A DNA stretch of 64,000 nucleotides from Parcubacteria group bacterium (GTDB lineage Bacteria > Patescibacteriota > Minisyncoccia > JACPHC01), in assembly GCA_016188775.1 (NCBI GenBank), contig JACPHC010000007.1:28097-92096 (forward strand), in the 5' to 3' direction. Of this stretch, positions 3,479 to 23,667 are shown piece after piece. Both the position numbers and the translations under genes were made by a program. How positions within the stretch are numbered: position 1 is the stretch's first letter; the number at the start of each line of letters is the position of its first letter. Under the pieces are notes generated by a model that was not told where the DNA came from, did not search any database, and saw nothing but the letters and a program-made list of their open reading frames with translations.

Positions 3479-4654
3479 TTATTTAACATAAATTGGATTG
3501 GAAATTATCCAGGGATACCAAGAGCCGGCGATTTGCCGTTCCACTTCAACACGGTAAACGCCCGGCATTCCAATATGGGTTGTCAACGAAGCTGTTATGT
3601 TTTCGTCAATCACTTGGCCGTTTCGGAAGAAACGAATTTTCCCTTTTTGGGTAAGCCGAGTTTCAAAACGTATCATAAAGGCCGTGTCTTCGAGATTCGC
3701 CGTGCCTCCCATCATAAATATTTTGTCCTCTCCCTTTTTAGAAAGAAATTCCGCGTAGAAATTTAACTCATTAAAATTTCCGCCATTAACAATATCGAAT
3801 GAAATATAAGTTCGGCCATTTTTCAGAGCTTCCAGCACCGCGGCTTCTCTTAATTCCGGAGCCTGAACATGAACGCTGACCATATTGAAACTTAACCAAT
3901 ACGGATCCAGTTGCTTTCCCCAAATTTTTACATTTTGATGAGTGTCGTTTCCGGCAATGGCCGTGACGTGGCGGTTTTTTAGATTTTCATCCCATTTTTT
4001 TAAGGCGTTATCAGGCCGATCAAGGATTTGAAGAAAAATTTCTTTTTGATAATTTTTCCAGCAACATAAAATTCTGAAAATATGCCCGGGCCATTTCCAA
4101 AAAGGTTCGGTTAGCGCGTCATCAAAAATGTCGTAAATCTCAATAGCATCATAATCGGCAATTTCAAAATTTTTGTAAAGATAATCCGGATGGGCGATAG
4201 CGATTAAAGAATTTTGACCGCGAAGCTCTTCGGTTATTTCTTCCCAAGTCAATTTGCTTTTATCTATAAATTTTTTGGGCGCGATGGCGAGGATATCGGT
4301 TTTATCTTTGATAATTTCCGTCCCACGAATGAAAAGAATTCCGTCAATCAGTCCTTGAGGCTGGTCTCGAAATATTTTTTGATCGTTGTGATCGTTTAAA
4401 ATGACAAAATCCAAATTATTTTGATGAGCCGCGGCGATTATTTCATCAATTTTCCCTTCGCTGTCATGAGAAATGGAAGTATGGACATGAATAACGCCTT
4501 TATAATCATTGAGTTTAATAGGGTATAATGATCTATTCCTTATGCTAAAATTTTCTAAATCTTTTTTAATCGCTTCTAAATTTCCAGCGCAACCAAAAAT
4601 CAAAAATATGTTAATCAGGCTTAAAGCCGAAATGATAAATTTTTTAAAGAACAT
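3479..4654 (-). CDS. PHP-domain metal-dependent phosphoesterase, probable lipoprotein
   Basis: HVHTSISHD...NDHN polymerase/histidinol-phosphatase motifs; N-terminal signal with a lipobox-like LIFGC. Confidence 0.6.
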   Translation of the reverse strand: MFFKKFIISALSLINIFLIFGCAGNLEAIKKDLENFSIRNRSLYPIKLNDYKGVIHVHTSISHDSEGKIDEIIAAAHQNNLDFVILNDHNDQKIFRDQPQGLIDGILFIRGTEIIKDKTDILAIAPKKFIDKSKLTWEEITEELRGQNSLIAIAHPDYLYKNFEIADYDAIEIYDIFDDALTEPFWKWPGHIFRILCCWKNYQKEIFLQILDRPDNALKKWDENLKNRHVTAIAGNDTHQNVKIWGKQLDPYWLSFNMVSVHVQAPELREAAVLEALKNGRTYISFDIVNGGNFNELNFYAEFLSKKGEDKIFMMGGTANLEDTAFMIRFETRLTQKGKIRFFRNGQVIDENITASLTTHIGMPGVYRVEVERQIAGSWYPWIISNPIYVK

Positions 4655-4687: not shown

Positions 4688-5074
4688 TTATTTCGCTTCG
4701 TTATAATATTTAATAACTTTTTCAATTATCGTGTCAATTCTGGCGTTGGCTTTGATTAAAAAATCCGCTATTCCCAGAGCTTTAATTTTATCCACGTCGG
4801 CCATTTGGCTTAAATTAGAAATAACGATCACAGGGACGCTTTTCCAGCTTTCAATTTTTTTTATTTCCGAAAGTATTTCAAACCCGGACGCTCCGGGAAG
4901 CATCAAATCAAGGATAATCACGGTCGGCGGATTGCTTTTCGGGTCTTTTATGTAATTAAGCGCTTCTTTGCCGTTAATCAAAGGTTTTACCATCGCGTTT
5001 TGCTTGGCAAATTTAAGTTGGTAAGCCCTTTGGACCGATTGGTCGTCTTCAATTATGAGAATGTATTTTTCCAT
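4688..5074 (-). CDS. single-domain response regulator (receiver only)
   Basis: CheY-like fold with the DD...D...K residues. It is a close paralogue of the response regulator at 8058..8447. Its start overlaps the stop of the upstream response regulator by 1 nt. Confidence 0.8.
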   Translation of the reverse strand: MEKYILIIEDDQSVQRAYQLKFAKQNAMVKPLINGKEALNYIKDPKSNPPTVIILDLMLPGASGFEILSEIKKIESWKSVPVIVISNLSQMADVDKIKALGIADFLIKANARIDTIIEKVIKYYNEAK

Positions 5075-5460
5075 TACGCTTTTCCTTTATCCATTAACAT
5101 TGAAACTTCATTTATAAGGTTATCAAGTTTCCATTCGCTTTTGACAAAATATTCCAGGACCGAGAGTTTTTTAACTTCGTCTTTGGTGTCAAAGGTGCCG
5201 GAGACCGAGACAACCACCACTTTTTTGTCTTTTAATTCCGGTTCCCCCCTTAATTTTTTCAAAAAATCAAAGCCGGACATTTTGGGCAGCCGTAAATCAA
5301 GCCAAATAAGATCGATTTTTTCCGTTTTAAGCGAATTCATCGCTTCTTCGGCGGTGAAAGCGGAAAATGTTTTAAAGCCTTTTTCTTTAAGTCTTTCCAC
5401 GATAATTGAATTTAAGGCTTTTTCATCTTCAACAACAAGAATTGTTTTCACGTTTTCCAT
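5074..5460 (-). CDS. single-domain response regulator (receiver only)
   Basis: VVEDE...DLIWLDLRLPKMSGFDFL receiver motifs; 128 aa. Confidence 0.8.
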   Translation of the reverse strand: MENVKTILVVEDEKALNSIIVERLKEKGFKTFSAFTAEEAMNSLKTEKIDLIWLDLRLPKMSGFDFLKKLRGEPELKDKKVVVVSVSGTFDTKDEVKKLSVLEYFVKSEWKLDNLINEVSMLMDKGKA

Positions 5461-5488
5461 AAAAATTTATTTTTTTCGTTTTATTAAA

Positions 5489-7342
5489 TCAAGCTAAAGA
5501 GATAGTAAAATAAAAAGTCGCGCCTTTGCCTTCTTCGGATTCAAACCAAATTTTTCCTTCCCATAATTCCACCAATTTTTTGATCAAAGCCAGACCCAAG
5601 CCGTTGCCTTCGGGTATTTCAGTTACGGCGTTGTCGGCTCTGAAAAATTTTTCAAAAATATTTTTTTGCTGTTCTTTCGGTATTCCGATCCCGTTATCTT
5701 TAACCGAATAAATCAAAGTGTTTTCCGTTGCCGGGTCTTTTTCTATTTTTATTTCTATCGCGCCGTCTGTCCGCGTGTAATTTATCGCGTTTGAAAGAAG
5801 ATTAGTTATGACTTGCTCAAGCATAGTCAGGTCGGCCAGGGCATTTGCCAATTCTTTCGGGGGTTCGATAAAATTAACTTTGTGGTTTTTATTTTTAATA
5901 AGAGGGGAAAGATTTTTGACGATGTTATTCGTAACGTCCGAGAGATTAAGGCTAGTCATTTCATTTTTAATTCTGCCGCCTTCTATTCGCGCCAGAGACA
6001 AAAGCATATTAATGGTTTCGTTAAGCTTTAAAATTCCGGCATAAATTTGGCCAACGAAGTTTTTTTGGTCTTCATTAAGGGGCCCGGCATCTTCGCTTTC
6101 TATCATTTCGGTGTACCACCTCATGGTTGTCAGAGGAGTGCGCAACTGGTGGGAAGCGACGGAAATAAAACTGCTTTTCGTTTCGTCAATCTTTTTTTCT
6201 TCTTCGTTGTCCCTGAAAACGATTATGGCTCCGGTTATTCGCCCGGCCTCGTCTTTAAACGGAGCGGCTGTCAGAACAACGGGGAGTCTTTTTCCGGCCT
6301 TAGTTTCAAAATAATAATCGTCTTTTAACGATATTTCCATCGGTTTTCCGGTTTTTAACACGATTGCCGCGGGTCTTTTTTCTTCTTCTATTTTTTTTGA
6401 TCCCTGATAAACAAAAAAAACATCGCTGATTTTTTTTTCAACCGCGTCCGCTGTTTTAATTTCAAGAAGTTTTTCGCCTTTTTGATTGATGAGCGCGATT
6501 TTGAAAGACGAATCAATCAAAAGAACGCCGTCATCCATTGAAGAAATTAAAGTTTTAAACCGTTCGTATTCGTTTCTTATGTTTAACAGAGAGGTTTTTA
6601 GCTTAAGGCGCATATTGTCAAAATCGCCGATAAATTTTCCAAGCTCGTCATTTGATTTGTACGCGATTTTAAAATCAAAATTCTCTTTGCCGATGGCTTC
6701 GGAGCCTTTTTCAAGGATTTTTATCGGATTTTTAATGAATATTTGGAAAATAATGAAAATAGCGATAAAAATAAAAGCCCCGCCGATTCCAAGCGCTAAA
6801 ATAATGTTGTTAATTTGCGTCGTTATCGGGTTTAAAACGGCGTCAAGGACATCGTGAATTTCCACAACGCCCATAATTTGGCCGTTAATATTTATCGGGA
6901 TATAAATATCGAGAAAATCTCCGATTTCTGTTTCTTTAGGCTCGTTTTCATCTTCTTTTTTTTCTTCAAAAAACGATTTTTTTTCTTCCAGCGCGCGGCT
7001 GACATCCCGATGTTTCGGAAAATTTAGTCCGATCAAAGACTTGATGCTGGAAAATAATATTTTTTTATCGGCGCTCCAAATAGAAAAGCGGACTGTCCCC
7101 GGCGTCTTGATGTCTTCGCTGAAAATTTTGAATTTTTCCCGACTGGCCAGATCTTCCGGGTTAGAAAAATTTTCAGACAGAAGTTTTTCTTTTACCTTTT
7201 TATTTACCGTTTCGTTAATTCTTAAAAATTCCTCCTTGATAAATGAATTTTTTAATTGCTGGCGGATAAAAAAACCGATAATGGCAATAATGAAAATTAA
7301 AATTGCGATAACCGGTATCGTTATTTTATAGATAAGTTTCAT
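5489..7342 (-). CDS. sensor histidine kinase: two transmembrane helices, an extracytoplasmic sensor domain, HAMP, PAS, and HisKA-HATPase
   Basis: H-box SHQLRTPLT and N/G boxes (NLLSNAINYT, DNGIGI, GNGLGLALIKKL); two transmembrane helices flank a periplasmic domain of about 150 aa. Confidence 0.85.
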   Translation of the reverse strand: MKLIYKITIPVIAILIFIIAIIGFFIRQQLKNSFIKEEFLRINETVNKKVKEKLLSENFSNPEDLASREKFKIFSEDIKTPGTVRFSIWSADKKILFSSIKSLIGLNFPKHRDVSRALEEKKSFFEEKKEDENEPKETEIGDFLDIYIPININGQIMGVVEIHDVLDAVLNPITTQINNIILALGIGGAFIFIAIFIIFQIFIKNPIKILEKGSEAIGKENFDFKIAYKSNDELGKFIGDFDNMRLKLKTSLLNIRNEYERFKTLISSMDDGVLLIDSSFKIALINQKGEKLLEIKTADAVEKKISDVFFVYQGSKKIEEEKRPAAIVLKTGKPMEISLKDDYYFETKAGKRLPVVLTAAPFKDEAGRITGAIIVFRDNEEEKKIDETKSSFISVASHQLRTPLTTMRWYTEMIESEDAGPLNEDQKNFVGQIYAGILKLNETINMLLSLARIEGGRIKNEMTSLNLSDVTNNIVKNLSPLIKNKNHKVNFIEPPKELANALADLTMLEQVITNLLSNAINYTRTDGAIEIKIEKDPATENTLIYSVKDNGIGIPKEQQKNIFEKFFRADNAVTEIPEGNGLGLALIKKLVELWEGKIWFESEEGKGATFYFTISLA

Positions 7343-7354
7343 CCAAAAAATTTA

Positions 7355-7975
7355 TTAAATTTTTTTGAGAATCATTTTAATTACTAAAATCGAAACGATA
7401 AATCCGGCGGCGAGTTCAACAATGATTTTAGCGCCATTTTTAATGAAAGCGTTATTGATGTCTTTTTTTGTTTGGTTAAATGTTTGATAAATTTCCATAA
7501 CGCCCAAAACATTTTTCTGGCTATCAAGAATTGGGACGTAAGTTTCGGTAAATTCCGTATATTGTCGTTCGCTGGTTCTTTCAGCTTTAGAAAGCGATTT
7601 AAATTCAAACGCCGTTTCTCCGTCCAGGGCCTCTTTTACTTCATCGTTATCCGCGGCTTTCTCGCCGATAATTTCCGTAAGATTTGACCAGATTATTTTT
7701 GGTTCGCGGTCGTAAATTTTTATCCGAAAAAGCCTTGACGATTGGATTTTATCGAAGAAATTTTCAAAGACTCGCGCTTGCTCCTGCGTGGTTTTTTGCC
7801 AGACGGATTGGTCAATTAAAACGCTGGCTTGTTCTTGAATGAATTTTTCATTATCTTCTTTTAGATCGTCAATCGCTTCGTTTTTTATATTGTTGTAGCT
7901 TTTATAAAGCCAAAATCCGCCGCCTAAAATTGTTATAGCGGCTAAAATTAAAATAATTTTTAAATACTTGCTCAT
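7355..7975 (-). CDS. stand-alone membrane-anchored sensor-domain protein, paralogous to the periplasmic domain of the adjacent kinase
   Basis: Two transmembrane helices flank a domain that aligns with the kinase N-terminus (RFSIWSADKKILFSS vs RIKIYDREPKIIWSN; IYIPININGQIMGVVEIHDV vs TYVPILDSQKNVLGVMEIYQTF). It has no kinase core. Confidence 0.55.
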   Translation of the reverse strand: MSKYLKIILILAAITILGGGFWLYKSYNNIKNEAIDDLKEDNEKFIQEQASVLIDQSVWQKTTQEQARVFENFFDKIQSSRLFRIKIYDREPKIIWSNLTEIIGEKAADNDEVKEALDGETAFEFKSLSKAERTSERQYTEFTETYVPILDSQKNVLGVMEIYQTFNQTKKDINNAFIKNGAKIIVELAAGFIVSILVIKMILKKI

Positions 7976-8057
7976 ATTTATTTGAATTAATTATATGTAA
8001 ATTTTTATCGACCCCATAGTCATCTATAATAATAGCGAATATTTTTTATCGTATCAA

Positions 8058-8447
8058 TCAATCCTTCGCTTCGTTATAGTATTTAATAACAAGCTCGATC
8101 ATTTCGTCAATTCTAGTGTCGGCTTTGATTAAAAATTTTTTAATGCCCAGCGCTTTGACTTTTTCAATATCAGCGGCCTGGCTTAGATTGGAGAGCACCA
8201 GAACTGTCGCGTCTTTCCAGCCGTCTCGTTTTTTAATTTCCGAAAGAATTTGGAAACCCGAAGCGCGAGGCAACATCAAGTCAAGTATAATCACGGCCGG
8301 CGGTTCGTTTTTTAGGTTTTTGACGAAATCAATCGCTTCTTGTCCGTCCAAAACGGCTTTAAACGGCAAATTGTTTTTAGCGAATTTTAATTGATAGGCT
8401 TTTTGAATGACCGGATCGTCTTCAATTATGAAAATGTATTTATTCAT
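8058..8447 (-). CDS. single-domain response regulator (receiver only)
   Basis: Starts at MNKYIFIIEDD. The longer listed ORF at 8058..8672 runs into tRNA-Ser and is not real. The protein is highly similar to the one at 4688..5074. Confidence 0.8.
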   Translation of the reverse strand: MNKYIFIIEDDPVIQKAYQLKFAKNNLPFKAVLDGQEAIDFVKNLKNEPPAVIILDLMLPRASGFQILSEIKKRDGWKDATVLVLSNLSQAADIEKVKALGIKKFLIKADTRIDEMIELVIKYYNEAKD

Positions 8448-8537
8448 TGGCGGAGGGTGCAGGATTTGAACCTGCGAGGAGCTTTCGCCCCAACTGGTTT
8501 TCAAGACCAGCGCCATAAACCGCTCGGCCAACCCTCC
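8448..8537 (-). tRNA. tRNA-Ser (anticodon TGA), class II with a long variable arm; CCA encoded
   Basis: Cloverleaf GGAGGGT...CTGGT-CTTGAAA-ACCAG...GCAGG-TTCAAAT-CCTGC-ACCCTCC-G-CCA. Confidence 0.8.
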
Positions 8538-8632
8538 GTTTAAACCACTTCCGCCCAAGACGAACCAGCCTTGGGCTGACAGGCGCGTCTCCGTAATTTT
8601 AAAATTATCATTTATCATCGTTTTAATCAAAT

Positions 8633-8688
8633 AAAGCATCCGCGCCACCCTACGGGTGGCGCGGTATTGCAATAATGCTTTGTTATGA
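8633..8688 (+). repeat. GC-rich hairpin repeat (core copy A): AAAGCATCCGCGCC-loop-GGCGCGG..ATAATGCTTTGTTATGA
   Basis: Related copies at 19515, 42873 (minus) and 58080 (minus). GC-rich stem in an AT-rich genome. Confidence 0.6.
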
Positions 8689-10379: not shown

Positions 10380-11963
10380 CTATCTTTTATAAACGGTTGG
10401 AGAATTGAAAATTAAATTTTCGCTACAGCTTATTTCCTGATGTTCTATTTTTAAAGTTTGATTGTTTTGCAACTGCATCAATATTCTTCCGGAAATCGGC
10501 TTGGCGGAGCTTACTTGTTGGTGACTGCCGCTTTGATAGCAATATATTTGGCCGTCGGCTTTGACTTCGCTCGGTTCACGATTTACAAGTCCTTTGTATT
10601 GCGGCGTGAAATCAATCGAGCCATGATTCGCGATAACTCCCGCCACTCCAATTACGCCGATAGAAGGGTCGGTGTTGTTATGCACGATACCCATAAGGAT
10701 AAGATCATTCAATGAATCCGGCTGGCCTTGAGCTTTCCAGTTGCCCTGAATAGTGCCGGCTTTGTCCTGCATCACCTCGCCGCAGCGCGGCGGAACCTCG
10801 CGGTCAAATTTTTCGTAGAGCTGTTCTTTGAGAGGTGAAGGAAAGTAATCAATCGGGCATGTTGTGTACTGGAGCCGATTATCAAACTGTTCGCCCAGAA
10901 ATCCAAGCTTGGGTATGCGAAAATCATAGACACCCCAGTCTAAGGTCGCCCCGGGGTAGTCGGGTCCGCCGGCAGTGCCAATGATTTCTCCGGGCTTTGT
11001 TATATAATCTATACGATAACTCTTTAGAACGGTTTCTTGATTTCCCTCCATGTCGCTTGCCACAAGCTCTGTGTTTTTGGCATTTTGGACGGCTTGCTTC
11101 AGGGCATCGGAAATGGTCCCCATAGCTTCGAAGTAAAAAAGAACTTCCTTGCAGGGCGTGAACCCTATTGAGTAGTATTTGTCGTCAACAATTACGCCGT
11201 TTACTTTTTTGATAGTTTGACGTACGCCAATGATATGAACTGCGCCCGGCGCTTTGATGTCGGTTAAGATGGGACGCCCCGCGCCCTCGCCCATTTGTGG
11301 CAATAGGTACTCCATGTGATCCATAGGTATCGCATGATGCGGCGTTCCAATATGGCCTAAAGGAATAAGACGGTTTACCATAGAAACATCGATTGGAGAA
11401 TCGGTGAGAAGAATATTCCCGACGCAGGACGAAAGTTTTTCCGTAACGGGTTGATTATAAGTAAAGTCATTGCCTTTTGTGCCTTGGGTCGCGGGACAAT
11501 TTGCCATTATCCAATCTTGTTCGTCTTTAGCAAGCGGCCTTGAAATCCCATTTGTAATGGCCAAGGTCTGGAGACCCTCACGCATTCGTATTTCATCGGG
11601 ACAAGAGAAAGATTTAGACGAGGCTGCGTTCATTTGCTTTGGTGACGACACATTTGATTCGTTGAGTCGAGCTCTCGTTTTCGGGCCGACAACGCCAATT
11701 TGCTCGATCCCATATTTTGCTTGTAATTTTTTTACTGCTTTTTCGGTTAACGCGCCGAAATAACCGCTCACCAGCCCTTCTGGATAAATTTCAGGCATCG
11801 TTTTTAAAACCTGCTGGAGGCGTGCGACTTCATTGCCGGAAGATCCACGCTTTAAATATGATTGGAAAACTGAACTTTCAGCGTAAACTAGCGGGATTGC
11901 CGAAAAGAATAAGAGCAGCAATAAAGTTATGCAAATGAATTTCACGCGCGTTTTATTTCTCAT
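10380..11963 (-). CDS. secreted protein with an N-terminal peptidoglycan-binding domain and a large uncharacterised C-terminal domain
   Basis: Signal peptide; PG_binding_1-like GNEVARLQQVLK...GYFGALTEKAVKKLQ. GC content is clearly above that of neighbouring genes. Confidence 0.55.
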   Translation of the reverse strand: MRNKTRVKFICITLLLLLFFSAIPLVYAESSVFQSYLKRGSSGNEVARLQQVLKTMPEIYPEGLVSGYFGALTEKAVKKLQAKYGIEQIGVVGPKTRARLNESNVSSPKQMNAASSKSFSCPDEIRMREGLQTLAITNGISRPLAKDEQDWIMANCPATQGTKGNDFTYNQPVTEKLSSCVGNILLTDSPIDVSMVNRLIPLGHIGTPHHAIPMDHMEYLLPQMGEGAGRPILTDIKAPGAVHIIGVRQTIKKVNGVIVDDKYYSIGFTPCKEVLFYFEAMGTISDALKQAVQNAKNTELVASDMEGNQETVLKSYRIDYITKPGEIIGTAGGPDYPGATLDWGVYDFRIPKLGFLGEQFDNRLQYTTCPIDYFPSPLKEQLYEKFDREVPPRCGEVMQDKAGTIQGNWKAQGQPDSLNDLILMGIVHNNTDPSIGVIGVAGVIANHGSIDFTPQYKGLVNREPSEVKADGQIYCYQSGSHQQVSSAKPISGRILMQLQNNQTLKIEHQEISCSENLIFNSPTVYKR

Positions 11964-12156
11964 AAAATTATTTTACTAACTCTTTTATTGAAACGCTCAA
12001 TGCTTTGACAATATTATCGAGCCAATGACTTCGTTTTCCAACTGGCGGGACATTCGGGCTAAGTACCCGTGATATACAAGCAGTATAAGGCTTTTTTGAG
12101 CTCTTTTCCAAAACGTGATTTGATGGGGTTCAGTCGTGGTCGAAAACGAAAACTGC

Positions 12157-13665
12157 TTACGGAACTTTAACGAATTGAGGAAGCGTAGCATTGTCTGAAA
12201 TTTTTAAATTTTCTCCGGTAAGCGGATCTAACATCCAAAGCTGGGGAAAAGATGGATCGAGTTTTTCTCCCTTCACGAAATCGCGAGGCGCTACGCGGTA
12301 ATAGAACTTACCGCCATAACTTGAGGCAATCCCCCAAATAAACTGTTCCTCAAGAGGAATTTTAAGACCGCCAATTTTATATTCTTGCAATGTTCTCTTT
12401 GAAGTATCAATTACTGTCAGCCAACTTTGTTGTTTTTCATGTTGTACGTCCTTAATTCTATGAATAGCAAGAAAGCGGCCGTCCTTTGACCAGACAAACT
12501 CGCCAAATAAGCCGGAATATATACCACCCTTAACTTCAAAAAGGAAATTGCCGTCATCATCAAAAAACAATGCTTTCGGGGTTATATAATTTTCGCTTGC
12601 CAAACAACAGCCGCCGTTTACCACAAGTTTTTTGCCATCCGGAGACCACGCTGAAGCAGAAAAGTATTCCGCGCCATTGGCGAGCGACATGGTAAGAATA
12701 GTTTTTACTTGAGTTCCATCCATGCTTGCAAGCCTCACCGCGGCGTTCGCCGTGTACGCAAATTGCTTGCCATCGGGCGAGAAAATTGGCGGGGGCATTA
12801 ATCCCTTCGGAATCCGAGAGAAATCTCCATACGAATCAAATTTCTTAATAGTGTTTTTAACAATATCGAGCTCCCAGAAGAGAATAGTTTGTGTACGCAT
12901 TTGAGAATCTTCGGTCAGCGTACGCAGCAGCGCCTTTTTACCGTCCGGGTACCACGCTTCAAAATCAGCCTTCTCAAAACCCTCGGGAGTTTTTAATTTA
13001 AATAGAGCGGTGCCGTCGGTTTTGACAATATAGAGAGCGGTGGCAATGTCGGTCACCTGCGCTCTCAAGACAGGATCGTATCCTAGCGGTTTTTCTTTCT
13101 CGATGTTTTCAAAAACGATATATTCTCCATCAGGAGAAATGCTATAAATACCCGTAGCTTTCGCTCTGCTGGTTATTTTTTCCTGGGGCCTGAAGGCAAG
13201 ATCTCCCCTCCAGATCTCCCCTTCATTAATGTAGAAAACGCTTGTCGCATTATCTAGAACAGCGAAATCCGCGCTTAGAATGGCCGGCTCCGGAACATTT
13301 AAACGTTTTTTCCGAACCTCATCAAAATAAATGAGGGATTGCCCAGCATTCACGTCTCTGATTCCCACGCCGTAGTAGAAAAGCGGGAATTTTGTTTCGG
13401 AAGGATATTCTTCGAGGAAGGTCAAAGTTGTTGCGGCGCCTGTTTCTCTCTTGAGTTCGCTTCGCTCAATCACTCCCTCGAAGGATCGCCCGGGGGCGCT
13501 AGATTGCCACGTCAACCTCGGCAGTATGAGAAACTTTATCATCATAAAAAGAAGAAATAAAATCGCGGCAATGACGAGCATTGCGACGAGTAATCCGATC
13601 AACCATCTCTTTTTACGACGTTTCCGGTCGTCCCCCTTTTGATTGGGAAACTCGTTTTTCTGCAT
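12157..13665 (-). CDS. membrane-anchored TolB-like beta-propeller (PD40 repeat) protein
   Basis: N-terminal transmembrane helix; repeated SPDGK/WSPDGKK propeller motifs. High GC. Confidence 0.55.
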   Translation of the reverse strand: MQKNEFPNQKGDDRKRRKKRWLIGLLVAMLVIAAILFLLFMMIKFLILPRLTWQSSAPGRSFEGVIERSELKRETGAATTLTFLEEYPSETKFPLFYYGVGIRDVNAGQSLIYFDEVRKKRLNVPEPAILSADFAVLDNATSVFYINEGEIWRGDLAFRPQEKITSRAKATGIYSISPDGEYIVFENIEKEKPLGYDPVLRAQVTDIATALYIVKTDGTALFKLKTPEGFEKADFEAWYPDGKKALLRTLTEDSQMRTQTILFWELDIVKNTIKKFDSYGDFSRIPKGLMPPPIFSPDGKQFAYTANAAVRLASMDGTQVKTILTMSLANGAEYFSASAWSPDGKKLVVNGGCCLASENYITPKALFFDDDGNFLFEVKGGIYSGLFGEFVWSKDGRFLAIHRIKDVQHEKQQSWLTVIDTSKRTLQEYKIGGLKIPLEEQFIWGIASSYGGKFYYRVAPRDFVKGEKLDPSFPQLWMLDPLTGENLKISDNATLPQFVKVP

Positions 13666-15273: not shown

Positions 15274-16347
15274 ATGTTTTTATTCGGCGGAAAAAAAAGT
15301 TTTTTAGGCATTGATATTGGCACGACTTCCATCAAGATGGTAGAATTGGAAAAAGATCGAGTTGCCCGTCTCGTTACTTATGGCGAATTGGTTTTCAGGG
15401 AAAGCGATTCGATCAAATTGCTTGAGTCGGAAATGGCCGATTTTGTCAGGAAAATTTTGAAAGAATCCGGAGCGGCCAGCAAATCAGCCGTGATGTCTAT
15501 TCCTCTTTTTTCGAGTTTTTTAACAGTCGTTGAATTGCCGGCCATGAGCCAAGCCGAATTGGTTAAAGCCATTCCTTTTGAAGCCAAGGAATTTATTCCT
15601 GTCCCGATTGACGATGTCGTTTTGGATTGGCAGATAATCAGGGAGAAATTTTTGCCCAATCCCCGCGGTCCAAAATTCGAGCCGGTTAAAAAAATCGATG
15701 TTCTTTTAATAGTCGTGCCCAAAGAAACTATTTCTCGATATACTCGGATTGCCGAAGAAGCCGGCCTTTCATTGCTGGCATTGGAAGTCGAGCCGTTAAG
15801 TTTGGGCCGTTTGATTAAATTGATTCGGGCCGATGAAAAAGATCCGGGACTGTCTCTTGTTTTGGATATGGGCGAGCGGTATACTAATATCAGTATCATT
15901 GATAAAGGATTGCCGGTTTTGACTCACAGTATCGAGATCGCCGGCAGGGAGCTGACTAAAGCCTTGGTTCAGTCGGTTGGCATTAGCTGGGAAAGAGCGG
16001 AAGAAATCAAGCGCGAGCAGGGCTTGTCCGGCCAAGGAGGGGAGGCGCCGCTTTCCGATCTTTTAATTACGATTACGGATCGTTTAATTGCCGAACTGGA
16101 GCGCGTTATTTCCGATTTTAAACAAAAAAATGAAAAGAAAATCGATAAAATATTTGTTGCCGGCGGATCAGCCGCTCTTCCCGGCTTATCGGATTATTTG
16201 AATAAAAAATTTTCCCTGGCAGTCGTCGCTTTAAATCCTTTTTCAAAAATTGACCACCCAACGGTTTTGGATTCGGCGCTTGATAAATACGGATCGACTT
16301 TAAGCATTGCCTCGGGCCTGGCTTTAAGGCAAATCATCGAATCTTAA
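15274..16347 (+). CDS. pilM: type IV pilus assembly protein PilM (actin-like ATPase)
   Basis: LGIDIGTTSIKMVEL with an ASKHA fold; located in the pilus locus. Confidence 0.85.
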   Translation: MFLFGGKKSFLGIDIGTTSIKMVELEKDRVARLVTYGELVFRESDSIKLLESEMADFVRKILKESGAASKSAVMSIPLFSSFLTVVELPAMSQAELVKAIPFEAKEFIPVPIDDVVLDWQIIREKFLPNPRGPKFEPVKKIDVLLIVVPKETISRYTRIAEEAGLSLLALEVEPLSLGRLIKLIRADEKDPGLSLVLDMGERYTNISIIDKGLPVLTHSIEIAGRELTKALVQSVGISWERAEEIKREQGLSGQGGEAPLSDLLITITDRLIAELERVISDFKQKNEKKIDKIFVAGGSAALPGLSDYLNKKFSLAVVALNPFSKIDHPTVLDSALDKYGSTLSIASGLALRQIIES

Positions 16348-16370
16348 TTATTTTCATTTTTTTTTGAAAT

Positions 16371-16913
16371 ATGGCTATAGATTTATTAAAAAAAACAGAA
16401 GAAGGGTCGGGAGTTTTGCGTTTACGCAGGGTTCCGTCGACTTTGTCCACTTTTTTAGTCAGTCTCGTGACTTTAGTTATTATCAGCTTCGTCGGTCTTT
16501 TAGGTTTTAATTTTATTTTTGATCTTAAAGTTAAAAGTCTTGAGAAGGATATCAGCGAGACTCAAGTTCCGCTAACGGAGGTGGAGAGAATCAATGAGGT
16601 GAAAAATCGTTTGGCCAGTCTTGATTTTTTAATTTCCAATCATCGCCATCCGACTAAATTTTTTAAGTTTATTCAAAAGAATGCCGAGCCTAAAATCAGA
16701 TTTATCACTGTTAACGTTTCCGAGAACGCGTTGATTCTTTCCGGCGAGGCGGAAAATTATTCAGCGCTGGCCAAACAACTTGTTGTTTTTGAAAATAGGG
16801 AAATAAGTCAAGGAGTAAAATCGGTCGAACTCATAAGCCAAGGCTTAGGCGCTCAAGGAAGAATCAATTTCAATTTCCGCCTGGAATTGGAAAAAATTTT
16901 TTTTATTGAATAA
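16371..16913 (+). CDS. pilN: PilN-like pilus assembly protein
   Basis: Single N-terminal transmembrane helix followed by a coiled-coil periplasmic domain, directly after pilM. Confidence 0.5.
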   Translation: MAIDLLKKTEEGSGVLRLRRVPSTLSTFLVSLVTLVIISFVGLLGFNFIFDLKVKSLEKDISETQVPLTEVERINEVKNRLASLDFLISNHRHPTKFFKFIQKNAEPKIRFITVNVSENALILSGEAENYSALAKQLVVFENREISQGVKSVELISQGLGAQGRINFNFRLELEKIFFIE

Positions 16914-16918
16914 AAATT

Positions 16919-17467
16919 ATGTTTTTAAGAAATTTTATCATTACGATTTTGAGTCTGGCTATTATCATTGGCGGTCCGGTTTTTTTATTGAAACCGCAAT
17001 CGGAAAAAGCTTATGAGCTTTGGGTTAGAAATCGGGTTTCGACCGAAGAGTTGAAATTGAAAAGACAAATACAAAATCAAAGCCAGGAATTATCCGGAGC
17101 GCTGGATCAGCACAAAGATGAAATAGAAAACCGGCTTAAAATCGCGATTCCGAAAACTCTTGATAAAGCGAGTTTATTGCCTCAATTTGAAACTTTGGCC
17201 GCCAGTAACGGTTTAAATCTCGGATCAGTCGGTTTTGGCAAAGAAGAAACGATTAACGCTTCAATGGGCCTTAAAGCAACGAGTATTGATTTGACAGTAT
17301 CGGGCAATTTGCCTTCTTTTAGGAAATTCTTGGAAAGCCTTGAACAAAATCTTCGGATTTTTGATGTTAATAATTTCAGTTTTACCGCGCCGGCCAAAAC
17401 CGAAGATTTAATGTCGTTCAATTTAAAAATGTCGGTTTATTTTCAAGGCCGTCCATTAATAAAATAA
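16919..17467 (+). CDS. pilO: PilO-like pilus assembly protein
   Basis: Transmembrane helix plus coiled coil, after pilN. Confidence 0.45.
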   Translation: MFLRNFIITILSLAIIIGGPVFLLKPQSEKAYELWVRNRVSTEELKLKRQIQNQSQELSGALDQHKDEIENRLKIAIPKTLDKASLLPQFETLAASNGLNLGSVGFGKEETINASMGLKATSIDLTVSGNLPSFRKFLESLEQNLRIFDVNNFSFTAPAKTEDLMSFNLKMSVYFQGRPLIK

Positions 17468-17469
17468 AA

Positions 17470-17769
17470 ATGGCTATCATTCCCACAACTTTAAAACAGC
17501 CTTTGATTAAAAGAGAACAATTATTATTCGTTCTTTTGGGCCTTTTTATCGGCGCCGGCGTTTTGGCTCTTTACATTGGCATTTCAATTTCTAAAAAAGG
17601 CGGCGAATTTCTCCGTTTCAGAACCGAAATTCCCCTTGAGGAATTAAAAATTGATTTTTTAATTCTTGAAAATAAAAAATTTAAAGATTTGAAACTTCCG
17701 ATTAATCTCCCGATAAAACCGGAAGGAGGAGGAAGAACGAATCTAGACGATCCATTTTTACCATTTTAA
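17470..17769 (+). CDS. small membrane protein, possibly PilP-like
   Basis: 99 aa, single transmembrane helix, position in the operon. Confidence 0.3.
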   Translation: MAIIPTTLKQPLIKREQLLFVLLGLFIGAGVLALYIGISISKKGGEFLRFRTEIPLEELKIDFLILENKKFKDLKLPINLPIKPEGGGRTNLDDPFLPF

Positions 17770-17770
17770 A

Positions 17771-19516
17771 TTGGCAAAAGAAAAAACATTTTTTGATATT
17801 TTAGAGTCCAAAGGTCTTTTAAAAAGAACCGAGATTGATTTTATCGCCAAAGAAGCGAAAGATAAAAATATTGACCCGGAAGAACTGCTGATTGATAAAT
17901 ATCGTTTTTCAGCCATTGAAATCGCTAAAGCCAAAAGCGAGCTTACCGGCGCTCCCTTTAAAGTCATTCGAGCCGAAATTCCATTTGATGTTTTGCAATT
18001 GATTTCGGAAGAAGCGGCTCGGCGTTATCGTTTTATCCCTTTGGCGAAAACGGATAATATTCTTGAAGTCGGCATGATTAATCCCGAAGACGTCAAAGCC
18101 CAAGAAGCGCTCAAATTTATAATTTTAAGAAGCGGTTTGACCCCCAAAATTTATATTGTCAGCCGTTCCGATTTTGAAGATGTTTTGAAACAATATCGCG
18201 GTTTAAAAGGCGAGGTCAAAAAAGCCCTGAAAGAATACACCAAAGAAGCGGCCGAGGAAGAAATAATTTTGCCAAAATCTCCCTTGATTGAGAATTTAGA
18301 AAGAATGGCGGTTGAGGCGCCGATAACGAAAATAGTCTCGGTTATTTTAAGGCACGCGGTTGAAGGCAACGCTTCCGATGTTCACGTTGAGCCGACCGAT
18401 AAACAGCTTCGGGTGCGTTTTCGGGTGGACGGCATTCTTTATACCAGTCTTTTGCTGCCGGTGGAAATTCATTCGGCCGTTGTTTCCCGCATCAAAATTC
18501 TTTCTAATCTTCAGATAGACGAGACGCGCAAACCTCAAGACGGCCGTTTTCACACCGTTGTTGAAGATAAAGAGGTTGATTTTCGGGTTTCCACTTTTCC
18601 CACCAGTTTCGGCGAAAAAGTGGCGATGAGAATTTTGGATCCAACCGTCGGTCTTAAGAGTTTCAGCGACCTCGGCCTTCTCGGACGCAATGCCGAGGTT
18701 TTGTTTGAAGGATTGAAGCGGCCGTTCGGCTTGATTCTTTTGACCGGGCCGACCGGTTCGGGAAAATCCACCACCCTTTACGCGATTTTACAGTTTTTAA
18801 ACAAAGAGACGGTTAACATTGTCAGTCTTGAAGATCCGATTGAGTATTTTTTGGCCGGAGTCAATCAATCTCAAATTAAACCCGAGATCGGCTACGATTT
18901 CGCCACCGGGTTAAGGCATATTTTAAGAGGCGATCCGGATGTTATAATGGTGGGGGAAATCCGCGATCGGGAAACGGCCGCTTTGGCGGTTCACGCCGCC
19001 TTGACCGGCCATCTCGTTCTTTCCACTCTTCACACCAATGACGCTTTCGGCGTCATTCCCCGGCTGATTGATTTGGGCGTTGAGCCTTTTTTAATACCCT
19101 CGACATTAACCATTGCCATGGCTCAAAGATTGATTCGACGGCTTTGTCCGGAGTCAAGGCAGGAGACTGAGGTTGACCCGGAAAAATCCTTGATGATTGA
19201 AAAAACTTTAGCCGATTTACCCAAAGAAATTAAAGAGAGCGTTAAAATTAAAAAAGGCGCCAAAGTTTATCGGCCATTGGTTTCGCCAACGTGCCCGAAA
19301 GGCACGAGAGGCCGAATTGGCATTTACGAGGTTTTGCGAATGACGCCGGGGTTGGAAAAAATTATTTTGGAAGAACCGTCGGAAGCTCGGCTGAAAGAAG
19401 AAGCTAAAAAACAAGGGATGGTTTCAATGTACGCCGACGGCCTTTTAAAAGCGCTGGAGGGCGTTATCAGTTTTGAAGAACTGCAACAGACTGCCCAAAC
19501 GCCGGATGCCGAATAA
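17771..19516 (+). CDS. pilB: type IV pilus assembly ATPase PilB (GspE family)
   Basis: N-terminal T2SS-E domain; Walker A GPTGSGKST; tetracysteine motif. Confidence 0.9.
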   Translation: MAKEKTFFDILESKGLLKRTEIDFIAKEAKDKNIDPEELLIDKYRFSAIEIAKAKSELTGAPFKVIRAEIPFDVLQLISEEAARRYRFIPLAKTDNILEVGMINPEDVKAQEALKFIILRSGLTPKIYIVSRSDFEDVLKQYRGLKGEVKKALKEYTKEAAEEEIILPKSPLIENLERMAVEAPITKIVSVILRHAVEGNASDVHVEPTDKQLRVRFRVDGILYTSLLLPVEIHSAVVSRIKILSNLQIDETRKPQDGRFHTVVEDKEVDFRVSTFPTSFGEKVAMRILDPTVGLKSFSDLGLLGRNAEVLFEGLKRPFGLILLTGPTGSGKSTTLYAILQFLNKETVNIVSLEDPIEYFLAGVNQSQIKPEIGYDFATGLRHILRGDPDVIMVGEIRDRETAALAVHAALTGHLVLSTLHTNDAFGVIPRLIDLGVEPFLIPSTLTIAMAQRLIRRLCPESRQETEVDPEKSLMIEKTLADLPKEIKESVKIKKGAKVYRPLVSPTCPKGTRGRIGIYEVLRMTPGLEKIILEEPSEARLKEEAKKQGMVSMYADGLLKALEGVISFEELQQTAQTPDAE

Positions 19517-19695
19517 AGCATCCGCGCCGCAAGCGGCGCGGAATTGTGATAATGCTTTGTTATGAAAAGTTCTCGCTCGGCCCTGCCTGCCGGCAAGGCA
19601 GGCCGACCAACTCGCCTCGCTCGATTTAAACTCGTTTCGCTCGTTGCCTTCATCCCCGCGACAAGTCGCGTGGTATTCGGCGAATACATAATAAA
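19515..19695 (+). repeat. full-length (~180-nt) copy B of the GC-hairpin repeat family
   Basis: Its core matches 8633..8688. Its extension matches the reverse complement of 57917..58080 except for a 24-nt indel. The listed ORF MKSSRSA... is its translation. Confidence 0.6.
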
Positions 19696-19846
19696 CGCGA
19701 TAACGATCATGTTTCTTTTAAAAAAACAAAATAAAGGGTTTACCCCGTAAGACAACTTTGAATGCTGTCATTAAATTTTTTGATTAATGACAGTTTCAGG
19801 GCAAGATTATATAAATATGTTTGAATCTTTTAAAAAATCATCAATA

Positions 19847-20293
19847 ATGACAGTAAAAAATTTTTTTCAAAGTTGCTCTACGGGGTTTACTTTGATTGAA
19901 CTTTTGGTGGTAATCGCCATTATCGCTCTTTTAGCCGGCACGGTCCTTTATCTTTTGAGCCAATATCGAGCGCGCTTGCGCGATTCCCAGAGAATCGCCG
20001 CGGTTCGCGATATGGAAAAAGCTCTGGCTATTTATTATAATGGTAATTCTCTTTACCCGGCCGGCGGCTCTTGCGACACTACCGGTTGCGTTGTTGAACC
20101 TGGTAATATTATACTGGAAGGAACATTGGTGAGCCAATTTTTACTTTCCAGATTACCTAAAGACCCGTTCAACGCGACTCCTTATCAACTGATTTATTTT
20201 TCCAGCAGCAACGGCGCCAATTATGTTTTAAATTATTATCTTGAAACCACGTCAGGGGCAGGCAACGCGGGCTTAAACAGCATTCATCCGTAA
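19847..20293 (+). CDS. pilA: type IV pilin (prepilin with N-terminal cleavage/methylation domain)
   Basis: G|FTLIELLVVIAIIALLAG. The start is chosen at the ATG that gives a short leader; the listed ORF begins at 19787. Confidence 0.75.
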   Translation: MTVKNFFQSCSTGFTLIELLVVIAIIALLAGTVLYLLSQYRARLRDSQRIAAVRDMEKALAIYYNGNSLYPAGGSCDTTGCVVEPGNIILEGTLVSQFLLSRLPKDPFNATPYQLIYFSSSNGANYVLNYYLETTSGAGNAGLNSIHP

Positions 20294-20326
20294 ATTTTAA
20301 ATTTATTAAAAATTTCACTACCGAGT

Positions 20327-20728
20327 ATGCCAAAAGAAAAAAAATTATTTGTTTTAATAATAGACGATGATCCGTTTCTTTCCGAAATGTATTCCACTCG
20401 TTTTAAGCAAGATAAATTTGAAGCTGATGTCGCGGTCAACGGAGAAGAAGGATTTCAAAAAGCCAAGGAAAAAAAGCCGGATTTGATTTTGCTCGACGTG
20501 GTAATGCCGAAAATGGACGGTTTTGAAACCCTCAAAGCTCTGAAAGATAACATTGAAACAAAAGGCATTCCCGTTATTTTATTAACTAATTTGGGCCAGC
20601 GCGAAGATGTTGAAAAGGGATTGAAATTAGGCGCGGACGATTATGTTATCAAAGCCCATTTCACTCCGACTGAAGTTTTAAAAAGGGCGGAAAAGGTGTT
20701 AGAATCAAGAAAAAGTAAAAGTAAATAA
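20327..20728 (+). CDS. single-domain response regulator (PilH/CheY-like) inside the pilus operon
   Basis: IIDDD...DLILLDVVMPKMDGFE receiver motifs. Confidence 0.8.
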   Translation: MPKEKKLFVLIIDDDPFLSEMYSTRFKQDKFEADVAVNGEEGFQKAKEKKPDLILLDVVMPKMDGFETLKALKDNIETKGIPVILLTNLGQREDVEKGLKLGADDYVIKAHFTPTEVLKRAEKVLESRKSKSK

Positions 20729-20732
20729 TAAA

Positions 20733-21800
20733 ATGAGTTATTTTGAAGAACTGGAAAAACTTTTAGAAGCGGTGGTTATTCAAAACGGTTCCGATATTCA
20801 TATTAGCGTCGGCCGTCATCCCACGCTTCGGGTGGACGGGGCTTTGATCCCTTTGATTAAAAAACCGATTTTAAACGGCGAAGACGCGTTGGGTTTAATT
20901 CAGGCTCTTCTTAACGAGGAGCAGTTTAATCGTTTTTTAAAAGAAAAAGAACTGGATTTTTCTTACAGTTTTCGCGACCGGGCGCGTTTTCGGGCTAATG
21001 TGTTTTTCCAGCGCGGCTTTGCCGGCGCGGCTTTGCGTTTGATACCGGCTAAAATTAAAACCATTGAAGAGCTTAATCTTCCGCCGGTTTTGCGCGAATT
21101 CGCCCGTTACAGTCAGGGATTTTTTTTGGTGGTCGGGCCGACCGGGCACGGCAAAACCACGACCTTGGCTGCCCTAGTCGACGAGATTAATCATCAAAGA
21201 GACGAACACATCATTACCATTGAAGATCCGATTGAATATCTTTTTTCCCAATCCCGTTCGATTATTAACCAGAGGGAAGTGGGCATTGACACTGCCAATT
21301 TTCATAAAGCTCTTCGTTCGATGTTTCGGGAAGATATTGACGTGGCCATGATAGGAGAGATGCGCGATCCGGAAACGATGTCCGCCGCGGTCACGGCGGC
21401 CGAGACCGGCCATTTGGTTTTTTCCACTTTACACACCAACAGCGCCACCCAGACTATTGATCGGATTATTGATTCTTTTCCGTCCTCCCAGCAATCGCAA
21501 ATTCGCATTCAGCTGGCTTCGTCTTTAATCGGCATTGTTTCCCAGCGTTTGATTCCCCGAATTTCCGGCGGCTTGATTCCGGCCGTGGAGGTGATGATCG
21601 CCAATTCCGCCATCAGAAATTTAATTCGGGAAAATAAAACTCATCAATTAGATTTGGTGATTGACACGTCTTTTCAGGAAGGAATGGTATCTCTTAATCG
21701 ATCTTTGGCTGATTTGACGCGCCGGAAAGAAATCTCCTTAGAAAACGCGATGATTTATTCCACCAATCCGTCGGAATTAAGATTGCTTTTGAAAAAATAA
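20733..21800 (+). CDS. pilT: twitching-motility retraction ATPase PilT
   Basis: Walker A GPTGHGKTTT and PilT-family motifs; 355 aa. Confidence 0.9.
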   Translation: MSYFEELEKLLEAVVIQNGSDIHISVGRHPTLRVDGALIPLIKKPILNGEDALGLIQALLNEEQFNRFLKEKELDFSYSFRDRARFRANVFFQRGFAGAALRLIPAKIKTIEELNLPPVLREFARYSQGFFLVVGPTGHGKTTTLAALVDEINHQRDEHIITIEDPIEYLFSQSRSIINQREVGIDTANFHKALRSMFREDIDVAMIGEMRDPETMSAAVTAAETGHLVFSTLHTNSATQTIDRIIDSFPSSQQSQIRIQLASSLIGIVSQRLIPRISGGLIPAVEVMIANSAIRNLIRENKTHQLDLVIDTSFQEGMVSLNRSLADLTRRKEISLENAMIYSTNPSELRLLLKK

Positions 21801-21805
21801 GTAAA

Positions 21806-23008: not shown

Positions 23009-23079
23009 GTCTGTGGATAATTTAATAATTTTTGATTTCGGTAAAAAAGGTCGAGACATAAATTTATATTTGCTTTAAA

Positions 23080-23565
23080 ATGATAAAGAAAAATAAAGGT
23101 TTTACTTTAATTGAACTTTTGGTGGTAATCGCCATTATCGGTATTTTAGCCGGCATTGTTTTGGTTTCTCTGTCCACTGTCCGATCTCGAGGGCGGGATG
23201 CCAGACGGCAAGGAGACTTGGAATCGGTCAGGACCGCTTTGGAATTATATTTGGACGCCAATAACACGTATCCGGCTGGAAGCGGCACTACGCTCGCTGA
23301 CACCGCTAACGCGCTTCCCTCCGCTTTATCGCCGACTTATCTTGGCAAAATTCCGGGAAATCCTACGCCCTCCGGTACTCCTATATCCGCCTATCAATAT
23401 TTTGCGGGAACAGCTACTCCTCTTTCCACTTATCTGCTTAGGGTTAGCTTAGAAAATGGAAATTCTGCCGGTATTAATTCACTTCCTACTGGTTTTACTG
23501 CTGGCGGAACAGTAACTTGCGGTGATGGCTCATCAACAGATACAGTGCTTTGTTTCATTCCTTAA
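23080..23565 (+). CDS. type IV pilin (prepilin), second major-pilin candidate
   Basis: KG|FTLIELLVVIAIIGILAG N-terminus. Confidence 0.8.
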   Translation: MIKKNKGFTLIELLVVIAIIGILAGIVLVSLSTVRSRGRDARRQGDLESVRTALELYLDANNTYPAGSGTTLADTANALPSALSPTYLGKIPGNPTPSGTPISAYQYFAGTATPLSTYLLRVSLENGNSAGINSLPTGFTAGGTVTCGDGSSTDTVLCFIP

Positions 23566-23593
23566 ACTGATAAAAATTAGACTGCTAGAAAAT

Positions 23594-23667
23594 GTCATTG
23601 CGAGCGACCGAAGAAAGCGAAGCAATCTAGCTTTCATAAACGAGATTGCCACGGCGTCTTCGACGTC
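23594..23667. repeat. inverted-repeat miniature element (GTCATTGCGAG...GAAGCAATCT / AGATTGCC...CTCGCGATGAC)
   Basis: Imperfect 74-bp palindrome. The same arms flank the GIY-YIG remnant at 52.6-52.9 kb. Confidence 0.6.

Follow-up and report, generated by a model that had tools for sequence, protein, structure and literature searches.

Why would a bacterium keep, directly in front of a histidine kinase gene, a second gene that encodes a copy of the kinase's sensor module and nothing else? This question is raised by a gene cluster in a 64-kb stretch of DNA (the window) from a metagenome-assembled genome (MAG) of the Parcubacteria group. All genes of the cluster are on the minus strand, in the order tRNA-Ser, RR1, SA, histidine kinase (HK), RR2 and RR3, where RR1, RR2 and RR3 are response regulators and SA (locus tag HYV52_02505) is the stand-alone sensor protein. 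An initial annotation, made from the sequence alone, had listed these five protein-coding genes on the minus strand, and each was found at its position. It had seen in SA a decoy or a co-sensor and in the cluster a chemotaxis-like relay that might control pili. The cluster is one copy of a conserved module consisting of SA, a WalK-like kinase and one or two receiver-only regulators. The evidence favours SA as a dedicated accessory or co-sensor subunit of the kinase, which would signal through the receiver-only regulators; the probability of this reading is put at roughly 0.55.

Anatomy and fold of the stand-alone sensor protein

Hydropathy analysis showed two strongly hydrophobic segments around ~150 residues in both SA and the kinase (segment positions in Table 1). 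With cytoplasmic tails of about four residues per end, SA has almost nothing inside the cell and must act within the membrane or on its outer side. SA residues 70-175 aligned with kinase residues 71-179, all of them extracytoplasmic, at 25% identity over 110 residues (BLASTP, pairwise E 2e-7). When the membrane helices were cut away and only the ectodomain columns of the family alignments were compared by hhalign, the SA and kinase-sensor families matched with a probability of 100% (E 3.9e-48, 140 columns). Judged from these alignments, SA is a true paralogue of the transmembrane (TM)-Cache-TM sensor module of the kinase, with a likeness that is not confined to the membrane helices. The initial annotation had likewise described a stand-alone sensor copy with two TM helices upstream of the kinase and had named similarity limited to the TM segments as the weak point of that claim; the ectodomain-only match settles this point in its favour.

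Neither SA nor the kinase sensor region had a Pfam match at E<=0.01, to a Cache-clan model or any other, and among Pfam models neither YycH nor YycI matched SA. The sole NCBIfam match of SA was to HK_WalK, at the N-terminal positions 14-203 of that model. Structure prediction with AlphaFold2 was uninformative when SA was supplied as a single sequence (predicted local distance difference test, pLDDT, 49), and gave a model with a pLDDT of 95.3 and a predicted template modelling score (pTM) of 0.86 when an alignment of 41 sequences was used. The helices (H) and strands (E) of this model are H3-53, H63-77, E82-88, E93-97, H111-117, E122-127, E141-150, E156-165 and H167-205. A long helix runs out of TM1 and is followed by a five-stranded antiparallel β-sheet with flanking helices and by a C-terminal helix that becomes TM2, a predicted arrangement with the layout of Cache/PDC domains. 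In a Foldseek comparison of the model with the PDB, the extracellular domain of WalK ranked first (9a5d, 7dud, 4ywz, 5is1; E 1.3e-9 to 4e-6) and the ectodomains of KinD, CitA, DcuS and DctB came next, with a probability of 1.00 for these and for WalK.

Distribution of the family and its pairing with the kinase

Word-indexed protein searches with SA found only SA itself, and those with the kinase sensor found nothing, because the sequences are too diverged for the index. A joint profile of SA and the kinase sensor was informative where these were not: searched against 1.84 billion representative proteins, it gave 1655 matches at E<=1e-3 and 412 at E<=1e-10, and recovered hundreds of 50%-identity clusters, with about 44% of the best 150 being SA-like. 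Among these best 150 matches, 66 were 190-235 aa long and 56 fell into the 200-224 aa bin. Most of the 190-235 aa proteins stop a few basic residues past TM2, and this common end rules out random truncation at contig ends. The short proteins grouped apart from kinase-attached sensors in a neighbour-joining tree of the sensor regions, and the nearest neighbour was also short for 51 of 61 short proteins. No SA homologue carried an informative name or a Pfam domain, all being named 'hypothetical protein'; precomputed Pfam annotation was empty in 21 of 22 matches of the SA profile, the exception carrying PAS domains only.

The SA and kinase-sensor clades have a common core of F59, F70, F73, R84, W88, S97, G104, Y146, P148, G158 and E161 (SA numbering). 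Across 41 diverse homologues, the SA clade has near-invariant residues of its own, namely K86, W96, N110, G119, E132, E136, E144 and Y163; the kinase sensors have T or S in place of K86, Q in place of E136 and variable residues in place of Y163. R84 and K86, E144 and Y146, and E161 and Y163 alternate along β1, β4 and β5 and thus line one face of the sheet, which in the model would be the usual ligand side of Cache/PDC domains. Conservation was higher for SA than for the kinase sensor (mean pairwise identity 39% vs 34%). On sequence grounds, SA represents an old, separate subfamily with its own conserved residues.

Pattern scans and exact-protein look-ups gave 13 distinct related loci, with two genome loci and five metagenome loci coming from the pattern scan with a six-sequence alignment. 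SA was located upstream of a signalling gene in 13/13 of these loci. Absence or decay of SA in relatives, which the initial annotation had set down as the observation that would count against it, was therefore not what was found. Wherever SA was at least 32% identical to the window SA, it was directly upstream of a kinase with a paralogous sensor (11/11 loci, including a second pair in the same MAG), and the kinase sensors in these loci were 30-40% identical to that of the window kinase. The sources include a Saccharibacteria MAG (L003), a Paceibacterota MAG (L004) and an organism represented by three contigs (L007, L010 and L011). In the second pair of the same MAG (L017), SA2 was 37-42% identical to the window protein (SA1), and the two kinase sensors were 30% identical to each other. 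The spacing between SA and kinase genes was -4 to +18 nt in 11 of 12 pairs, window included, with a gap of 12 nt in the window and a 4-nt overlap in three related loci. Distance matrices of SA and the kinase sensors were correlated (Mantel r = 0.80, p = 4e-4, 12 pairs). The tight spacing, this correlation and the second pair indicate that SA and the kinase are inherited, and have been duplicated, as a unit. The mirror-tree (Mantel) test had also been considered as a sign of physical interaction; this use was dropped, as it speaks to co-inheritance only.

The neighbourhoods of the related pairs contain further signalling genes. In three relatives of higher GC content (L006, L007 and L010), the first kinase has a GAF instead of a PAS domain and is followed by a second, 472-aa HisKA/HATPase kinase with no SA-type sensor, which overlaps the first by 4 nt (L006:4677-6095, L007:7549-8967, L010:9561-10979); no receiver comes after it. 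Genes for cytochrome bd and cytochrome c are present on the contigs of L010 and L011 (52% GC) and likewise in the L006/L007/L010 group. These genes suggest that the higher-GC contigs may not belong to the candidate phyla radiation (CPR) and that the module may extend beyond it. Upstream of the pair in L019 (5634-8627) and L014 (3860-6048) is a gene for a multi-TM protein of ~500 aa that contains a dCache_3 domain but no output domain and is, from its sequence, a second kind of output-less sensor. In L019 this gene is followed by a receiver gene, whose product is 47% identical to the receiver RR4 described below, and then by a CheD gene, the end of which overlaps the start of SA.

The kinase, its receivers and the genomic setting

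The best NCBIfam model for the kinase was HK_WalK (NF033092, an equivalog model), with positions 8-593 of 594 aligned to residues 6-615 at E 8.8e-85. The kinase contains the full succession of WalK segments (TM, extracellular Cache/PAS, TM, HAMP, PAS, HisKA and HATPase_c), and its best sequence match in the PDB was VicK (4i5s), a WalK orthologue. The score of 285.4 bits was far under the curated cut-off of 725 bits, and by sequence the kinase is best described as WalK-like in design, not as a WalK equivalog. No WalR of the OmpR family was found near it, and all four receivers of the 64-kb window are receiver-only; matches of the window regulators to YycF covered the receiver part only, with scores far under the cut-off. 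No Pfam match to WalH or WalI (YycH or YycI) was found in SA or the neighbouring genes, and the genes downstream of the kinase encode receivers and a PHP hydrolase.

The H-box of the kinase reads SHQLRTPLT, that is, S-H398-Q399-L-R-T-P (6146-6151), with Gln at the position where HisKA kinases usually have Glu or Asp. His-Gln was present in 13 of 47 kinase-class representatives, and the L008 and L019 kinases have it as well; the other representatives that carry the motif had Glu (28), Asp (5) or Gly (1). The second kinase of the same genome (L017) has His-Glu. Replacement of the corresponding residue in CrdS (E372Q, E372A, E372G or E372D) abolished autokinase activity and left full phosphatase activity, and NtrB E140Q had the same phenotype (PMC3510030). 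A Thr or Asn at His+4, which is required for phosphatase activity (PMC3510030), is present in the window kinase, and its ATP-binding N, G1, F and G2 motifs are intact. By analogy with these mutants, a bias of the kinase towards phosphatase activity is plausible, as the Gln beside the phospho-histidine may make it lean that way.

Among all open reading frames (ORFs) of the window, one encodes a kinase and four encode receiver proteins, all of them receiver-only. The initial annotation had described three output-less regulators in the cluster and a fourth receiver-only protein in the pilus operon, and Pfam agreed: RR1, RR2 and RR3 (128-129 aa) contain the receiver domain PF00072 only, and RR4 is encoded between a pilin gene and PilT in a PilM/O/B/T/C/D operon. 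All receivers are single-domain CheY-like proteins that keep the acidic pocket ED(D/E), the phospho-acceptor D of 'LD' and the (S/T) and K columns; in RR1 these signature residues are E9/D10/D11, D56, S85 and K108. Two types could be separated. Type A, consisting of RR2 and L008_a, is encoded directly behind the kinase, and type B, consisting of RR1, RR3, L008_b and the receivers of L012 and L014, is encoded behind type A or alone behind the kinase. RR2 was 40-44% identical to L008_a, which has the same position in L008, and RR3 shared 44-45% identity with L008_b and is also related to the L012 and L014 receivers. RR4 is loosely of type B (29-31% identity to RR1 and RR3 by alignment, 31-36% by BLAST local alignment), and its α1 helix resembles that of type-B receivers; it is a candidate extra target of the kinase.

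RR1 and RR3, which had been called near-identical in the initial annotation, were found to share 65% protein and 71% DNA identity, with about 1.6 substitutions per synonymous site (dS, saturated) and a dN/dS of 0.15. These values are those expected of old paralogues under purifying selection. A recent segmental duplication as the origin of RR1 and RR3 was rejected, the synonymous sites being saturated. The two genes contain a 300-nt direct repeat of 71% identity (4692-4991 in RR3 and 8065-8364 in RR1, spacing 3373 nt) that flanks the SA-HK-RR2 block. The single type-B receiver of L008 is about 44% identical to both RR1 and RR3, so that RR1 is a lineage-specific duplicate of RR3. Receiver-only proteins recur around related pairs: L008 and L014 each have two behind the kinase, L012 has one there, and L019 has one in front of SA; such partners were thus present in the CPR-type loci in which the region behind the kinase was recovered. 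No DNA-binding regulator was linked to the module in any locus examined. The absence of output domains and the recurrence of receiver-only partners make a non-transcriptional or relay output a fair inference.

The cluster lies between the tRNA-Ser gene (Table 1) and a tRNA-Arg gene and has a GC content of about 0.36-0.39, compared with 0.45 in the ABC-transporter genes. The ATG of RR1 (8447..8445) abuts the encoded CCA of tRNA-Ser(tga) (8537..8448) with zero gap, so that an RR1 5' untranslated region or Shine-Dalgarno sequence outside the tRNA is impossible. This suggests a tRNA-mRNA co-transcript, which would leave a leaderless RR1 mRNA once the 3' end of the tRNA is processed. A listed 204-aa ORF (8058..8672) was discarded as an artefact that reads through tRNA-Ser, the true start of RR1 being the ATG at 8447. 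Two Logan contigs of the same organism (L001 and L002), assembled independently from two samples, both end within tRNA-Ser upstream of RR1; the breaks may stem from differences between strains or from repeats that disturb assembly at this junction. A tRNA-flanked genomic island was considered and dropped, as there was no direct repeat of the tRNA 3' end and no integrase, and the module is chromosomally conserved elsewhere. A consensus scan placed a candidate promoter inside the 82-nt gap between RR1 and SA, tentatively the start of an SA-HK-RR2-RR3 transcript in which the RR2 stop and RR3 start overlap by 1 nt; the promoter and terminator scans gave site totals in the region that were not above the shuffled expectation, so that transcript boundaries are tentative. 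A gap of 33 nt separates RR3 from the PHP metallohydrolase gene downstream, which may share a transcript with the module and encodes a lipoprotein-like N-terminus (…LIFGC…). Between the module and the pilus operon, also on the minus strand (10380-13665), are genes for a 527-aa PG_binding_1 protein and a 502-aa membrane-anchored PD40 β-propeller protein, envelope-related neighbours of the WalK-like system.

Table 1. Positions of the module, its parts and nearby features in the window, and of the pair in related loci
Feature	Position	Strand	Basis or remark
SA, 206 aa, TM1-extracytoplasmic WalK-type Cache/PDC domain (predicted)-TM2	7355..7975	-	No Pfam match
SA, TM1	about 7901-7963		
SA, ectodomain	about 7478-7900		
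SA, TM2	about 7370-7438		
WalK-like histidine kinase (HK), 617 aa	5489..7342	-	Pfam, NCBIfam HK_WalK
HK, TM1 (~residues 5-27)	7262-7330		Hydropathy
HK, Cache-type sensor	6794-7261		
HK, TM2 (~residues 184-204)	6731-6793		Hydropathy
HK, HAMP	6596-6736		Pfam, weak
HK, PAS	6206-6565		Pfam
HK, HisKA (H398-Q399)	5975-6178		Pfam
HK, HATPase_c	5495-5833		Pfam
RR1, 129 aa, type B receiver-only regulator	8058..8447	-	Pfam PF00072 only
RR2, 128 aa, type A receiver-only regulator	5074..5460	-	Pfam PF00072 only
RR3, 128 aa, type B receiver-only regulator	4688..5074	-	Pfam PF00072 only
RR4, 133 aa, receiver-only, in type IV pilus operon (15274-24778)	20327..20728	+	Pfam
tRNA-Ser, anticodon tga	8448..8537	-	ARAGORN; Rfam RF00005 59.6 bits; upstream boundary of the cluster
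Promoter-like site, TTGATA, 17 nt spacer, TATTAT	8029..8057	-	10/12 consensus matches
CehA/McbA-family PHP metallohydrolase	3479..4654	-	NCBIfam NF038032 89.7 bits (cut-off 80); weak Pfam PHP match
SA at least 32% identical, then kinase with paralogous sensor	L003, L004, L005, L006, L007, L008, L009, L012, L013, L014, L019		
Second SA-kinase pair of the same MAG, HYV52_00800	L017:125-2698		SA2, 204 aa, and 613-aa HAMP-PAS-HisKA-HATPase kinase
Distant SA, about 27% identical	L015, L016		Then PAS/GAF signalling proteins with no clearly homologous sensor

Role of the stand-alone sensor and its counterparts elsewhere

The tight and persistent pairing, the separate conserved clade and the inheritance as a unit make it most likely that SA is a subunit dedicated to the kinase and serves it as an accessory protein or co-sensor. 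We infer the physical association of the two proteins, the binding of a ligand, the direction of regulation and the targets of the receivers as follows. SA would be made together with the kinase, from genes with a 12-nt gap here and a 4-nt overlap in three relatives, and the two proteins would assemble into a mixed sensor complex through their membrane helices, the long N-terminal Cache helix, or both. R84, K86, E144, Y146, E161 and Y163 of SA would bind a ligand or the kinase ectodomain, and this binding event would set the balance between kinase and phosphatase activity, which the Gln at H+1 may shift towards phosphatase. The kinase would in turn control the phosphorylation of RR2, of RR1/RR3 and perhaps of RR4, and the receivers would act through protein-protein contact or as phosphate sinks, not by DNA binding. 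SA would thereby parallel WalH and WalI in function and differ from them in origin, having arisen by duplication of the sensor.

Several points weigh against this account. The signalling proteins downstream of SA in L015 and L016 have no clearly homologous sensor, so paralogous pairing is not universal, and the L017 pair is separated by 117 nt. The Mantel correlation is a sign of co-inheritance, not of physical contact, and residue-level covariation would need more than 12 pairs. The neighbour-joining tree carries no bootstrap support values, and the short and long sets were recruited by a joint profile, so that their ratio of ~1:1 is a biased census. Natural His-Gln kinases may retain autokinase activity, the ATP-binding motifs of the window kinase are intact, and the analogy to a peptidoglycan ligand draws only on the likeness in fold and family to WalK.

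Among the alternatives, it is unlikely that SA serves as a decoy or dominant-negative protein that soaks up the kinase ligand, or forms dead-end 1:1 dimers with the kinase, and so damps signalling. SA does have the fold of the kinase sensor and its core residues R84, W88, S97, G104, Y146, P148, G158 and E161, and SkiA and pXO1-118 of Bacillus anthracis provide a precedent through their relation to the kinase BA2291 (PMC8407390). However, a membrane-anchored protein present at about one copy per kinase cannot buffer a freely diffusing extracellular ligand, and the near-invariant residues that SA has for itself (K86, E136 and Y163) point to a distinct specificity or interface. Conservation above that of the kinase sensor, with tightly spaced or overlapping genes, is the pattern typical of a stoichiometric subunit. 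The dimerisation of kinases is driven by the cytoplasmic DHp domain, which is missing from SA. The choice between decoy and co-sensor that the initial annotation had left standing is thus tipped by clade, conservation and spacing towards a dedicated partner subunit, and a ligand-titrating decoy fits less well. It is highly unlikely that SA has a role separate from that of the kinase, such as that of a membrane-anchored scaffold or binding partner of envelope enzymes, and that the two genes adjoin only because they share regulation. Such a role would suit a protein with no signalling output of its own, the lack of a detectable paralogous sensor in the partners at L015 and L016, and the occurrence of other output-less sensors (multi-TM with dCache_3, about 500 aa) in the same neighbourhoods, but a signalling gene immediately adjoins SA in 13/13 loci, mostly with an overlap or a very short gap, one genome carries a duplicate of the complete pair, and the SA and kinase families co-diverge. 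A reading of SA as a pseudogene, an annotation artefact or the decaying remains of a duplicated kinase gene could draw on the lack of a Pfam family and on the bare name 'hypothetical protein'; it is refuted by an intact ORF in a discrete and conserved length class, by invariant residues across the 41 homologues in a clade of their own, by the high-confidence structure prediction and by the presence of SA in every relative examined.

Of the chemotaxis-like, pilus-controlling and non-transcriptional relay that the initial annotation had proposed, the non-transcriptional part stands as a fair inference, with receiver-only regulators adjoining the pair in four related loci. The remainder, in which the cluster would belong to a Chp/Pil-type pathway that controls type IV pilus dynamics with CheY-like receivers as outputs or sinks, is distinctly unlikely. 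All four window receivers are receiver-only and one is encoded between a pilin gene and PilT, the α1 helix of RR4 is like that of the type-B receivers, and in L019 an RR4-like receiver and CheD are encoded directly upstream of the SA-kinase pair. Set against this, the kinase is a classical HisKA, WalK-like protein and not CheA, and no CheW, chemoreceptor, CheB or CheR gene was found in the cluster. CheA-type Hpt/P5, CheW and chemoreceptor domains were likewise absent from the scanned genes of the cluster and the pilus operon, and CheD was found in L019 only. Some 7 kb with unrelated ABC-transporter, peptidoglycan-binding, β-propeller and ComF-like genes separate the cluster from the pilus operon, which is on the opposite strand, and pilus genes were present in the fetched flanks of 0/13 related loci. 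The link of the module to pili or chemotaxis is weak, with leads from L019 and RR4 only.

A dedicated co-sensor subunit would have counterparts in several known systems. WalRK (YycFG/VicRK) of Firmicutes has a kinase of the same architecture (TM, extracellular Cache/PAS, TM, HAMP, PAS, DHp and CA), accompanied, as here, by an operon-encoded membrane protein with an extracellular domain and no enzymatic output. WalH (YycH) and WalI (YycI) form a membrane complex with WalK and are negative regulators, and the WalK ectodomain of B. subtilis senses the products of peptidoglycan cleavage by D,L-endopeptidases (PMC7299342). The window system differs in the score of its kinase (285 bits vs the 725 cut-off), in its receiver-only partners, with no OmpR-type WalR, and in its accessory protein, SA being a two-pass paralogue of the kinase's own sensor that is encoded upstream. 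SkiA (pXO2-61) and pXO1-118 are free-standing proteins like the sensor domain of BA2291 that modulate the output of this kinase, and signal titration has been proposed for them (PMC8407390). SA is similarly a free-standing homologue of the kinase sensor domain, but it is membrane-anchored, extracytoplasmic, of Cache type and encoded in cis, close to the kinase, and forms an ancient clade across phyla. Virulence plasmids carry the genes for SkiA and pXO1-118, in trans to the kinase, and both proteins are globin-like domains that are soluble and cytoplasmic. LiaF with LiaS and MzrA with EnvZ are further kinase auxiliaries ('three-component systems') that act from the periplasm or membrane. To our knowledge, neither of these auxiliaries nor QseG is a paralogue of its kinase's own sensor module. 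The lipoprotein QseG is an envelope protein that is encoded beside a two-component system and acts on its kinase, QseE (PMC6075780).

Parallels can also be drawn on the output side. There, the window system resembles the DivJ/PleC-DivK circuits in that kinase- and phosphatase-biased kinases possibly act on one receiver, the genome having a His-Gln and a His-Glu (L017) kinase. Single-domain receivers serve as output in the DivJ/PleC-DivK circuits and in the CheY1/CheY2 sinks of Sinorhizobium. No link in sequence or context connects either of these to the window system. A more far-reaching proposal, built on such analogies and improbable as a whole, would make SA and the kinase an obligate mixed Cache 'split' receptor, in which the kinase-less paralogue supplies or gates the ligand site, as a general design of CPR/Patescibacteria. 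The His-Gln kinase and the His-Glu kinase of L017 would then be opposed on shared receivers, the ligand would be cell-wall fragments, possibly those of a host, and the output would be pilus attachment via RR4.

Envelope auxiliaries of histidine kinases such as WalH/WalI and QseG are already known, and single-domain regulators are common. No description of the present module was found in the literature on CPR/Patescibacteria two-component systems, on Saccharibacteria with WalK and on output-less Cache proteins, in a search not covering all literature. With this result and with no Pfam or NCBIfam family for SA, an unannotated, widespread family of TM-Cache-TM proteins, paralogous to the sensor module of the adjacent WalK-like kinase, appears to be undescribed. 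Almost nothing is known about signalling in CPR/Patescibacteria, and genes that are retained and duplicated in their tiny genomes are likely to matter. The module has a His-Gln kinase and lacks DNA-binding regulators, which suggests a phosphorylation circuit unlike the textbook pathway. If SA is indeed a duplicated sensor subunit, it would be a natural system for studying how Cache signalling crosses the membrane through helix packing, and a possible handle on envelope or host sensing in the genetically tractable, epibiotic Saccharibacteria.

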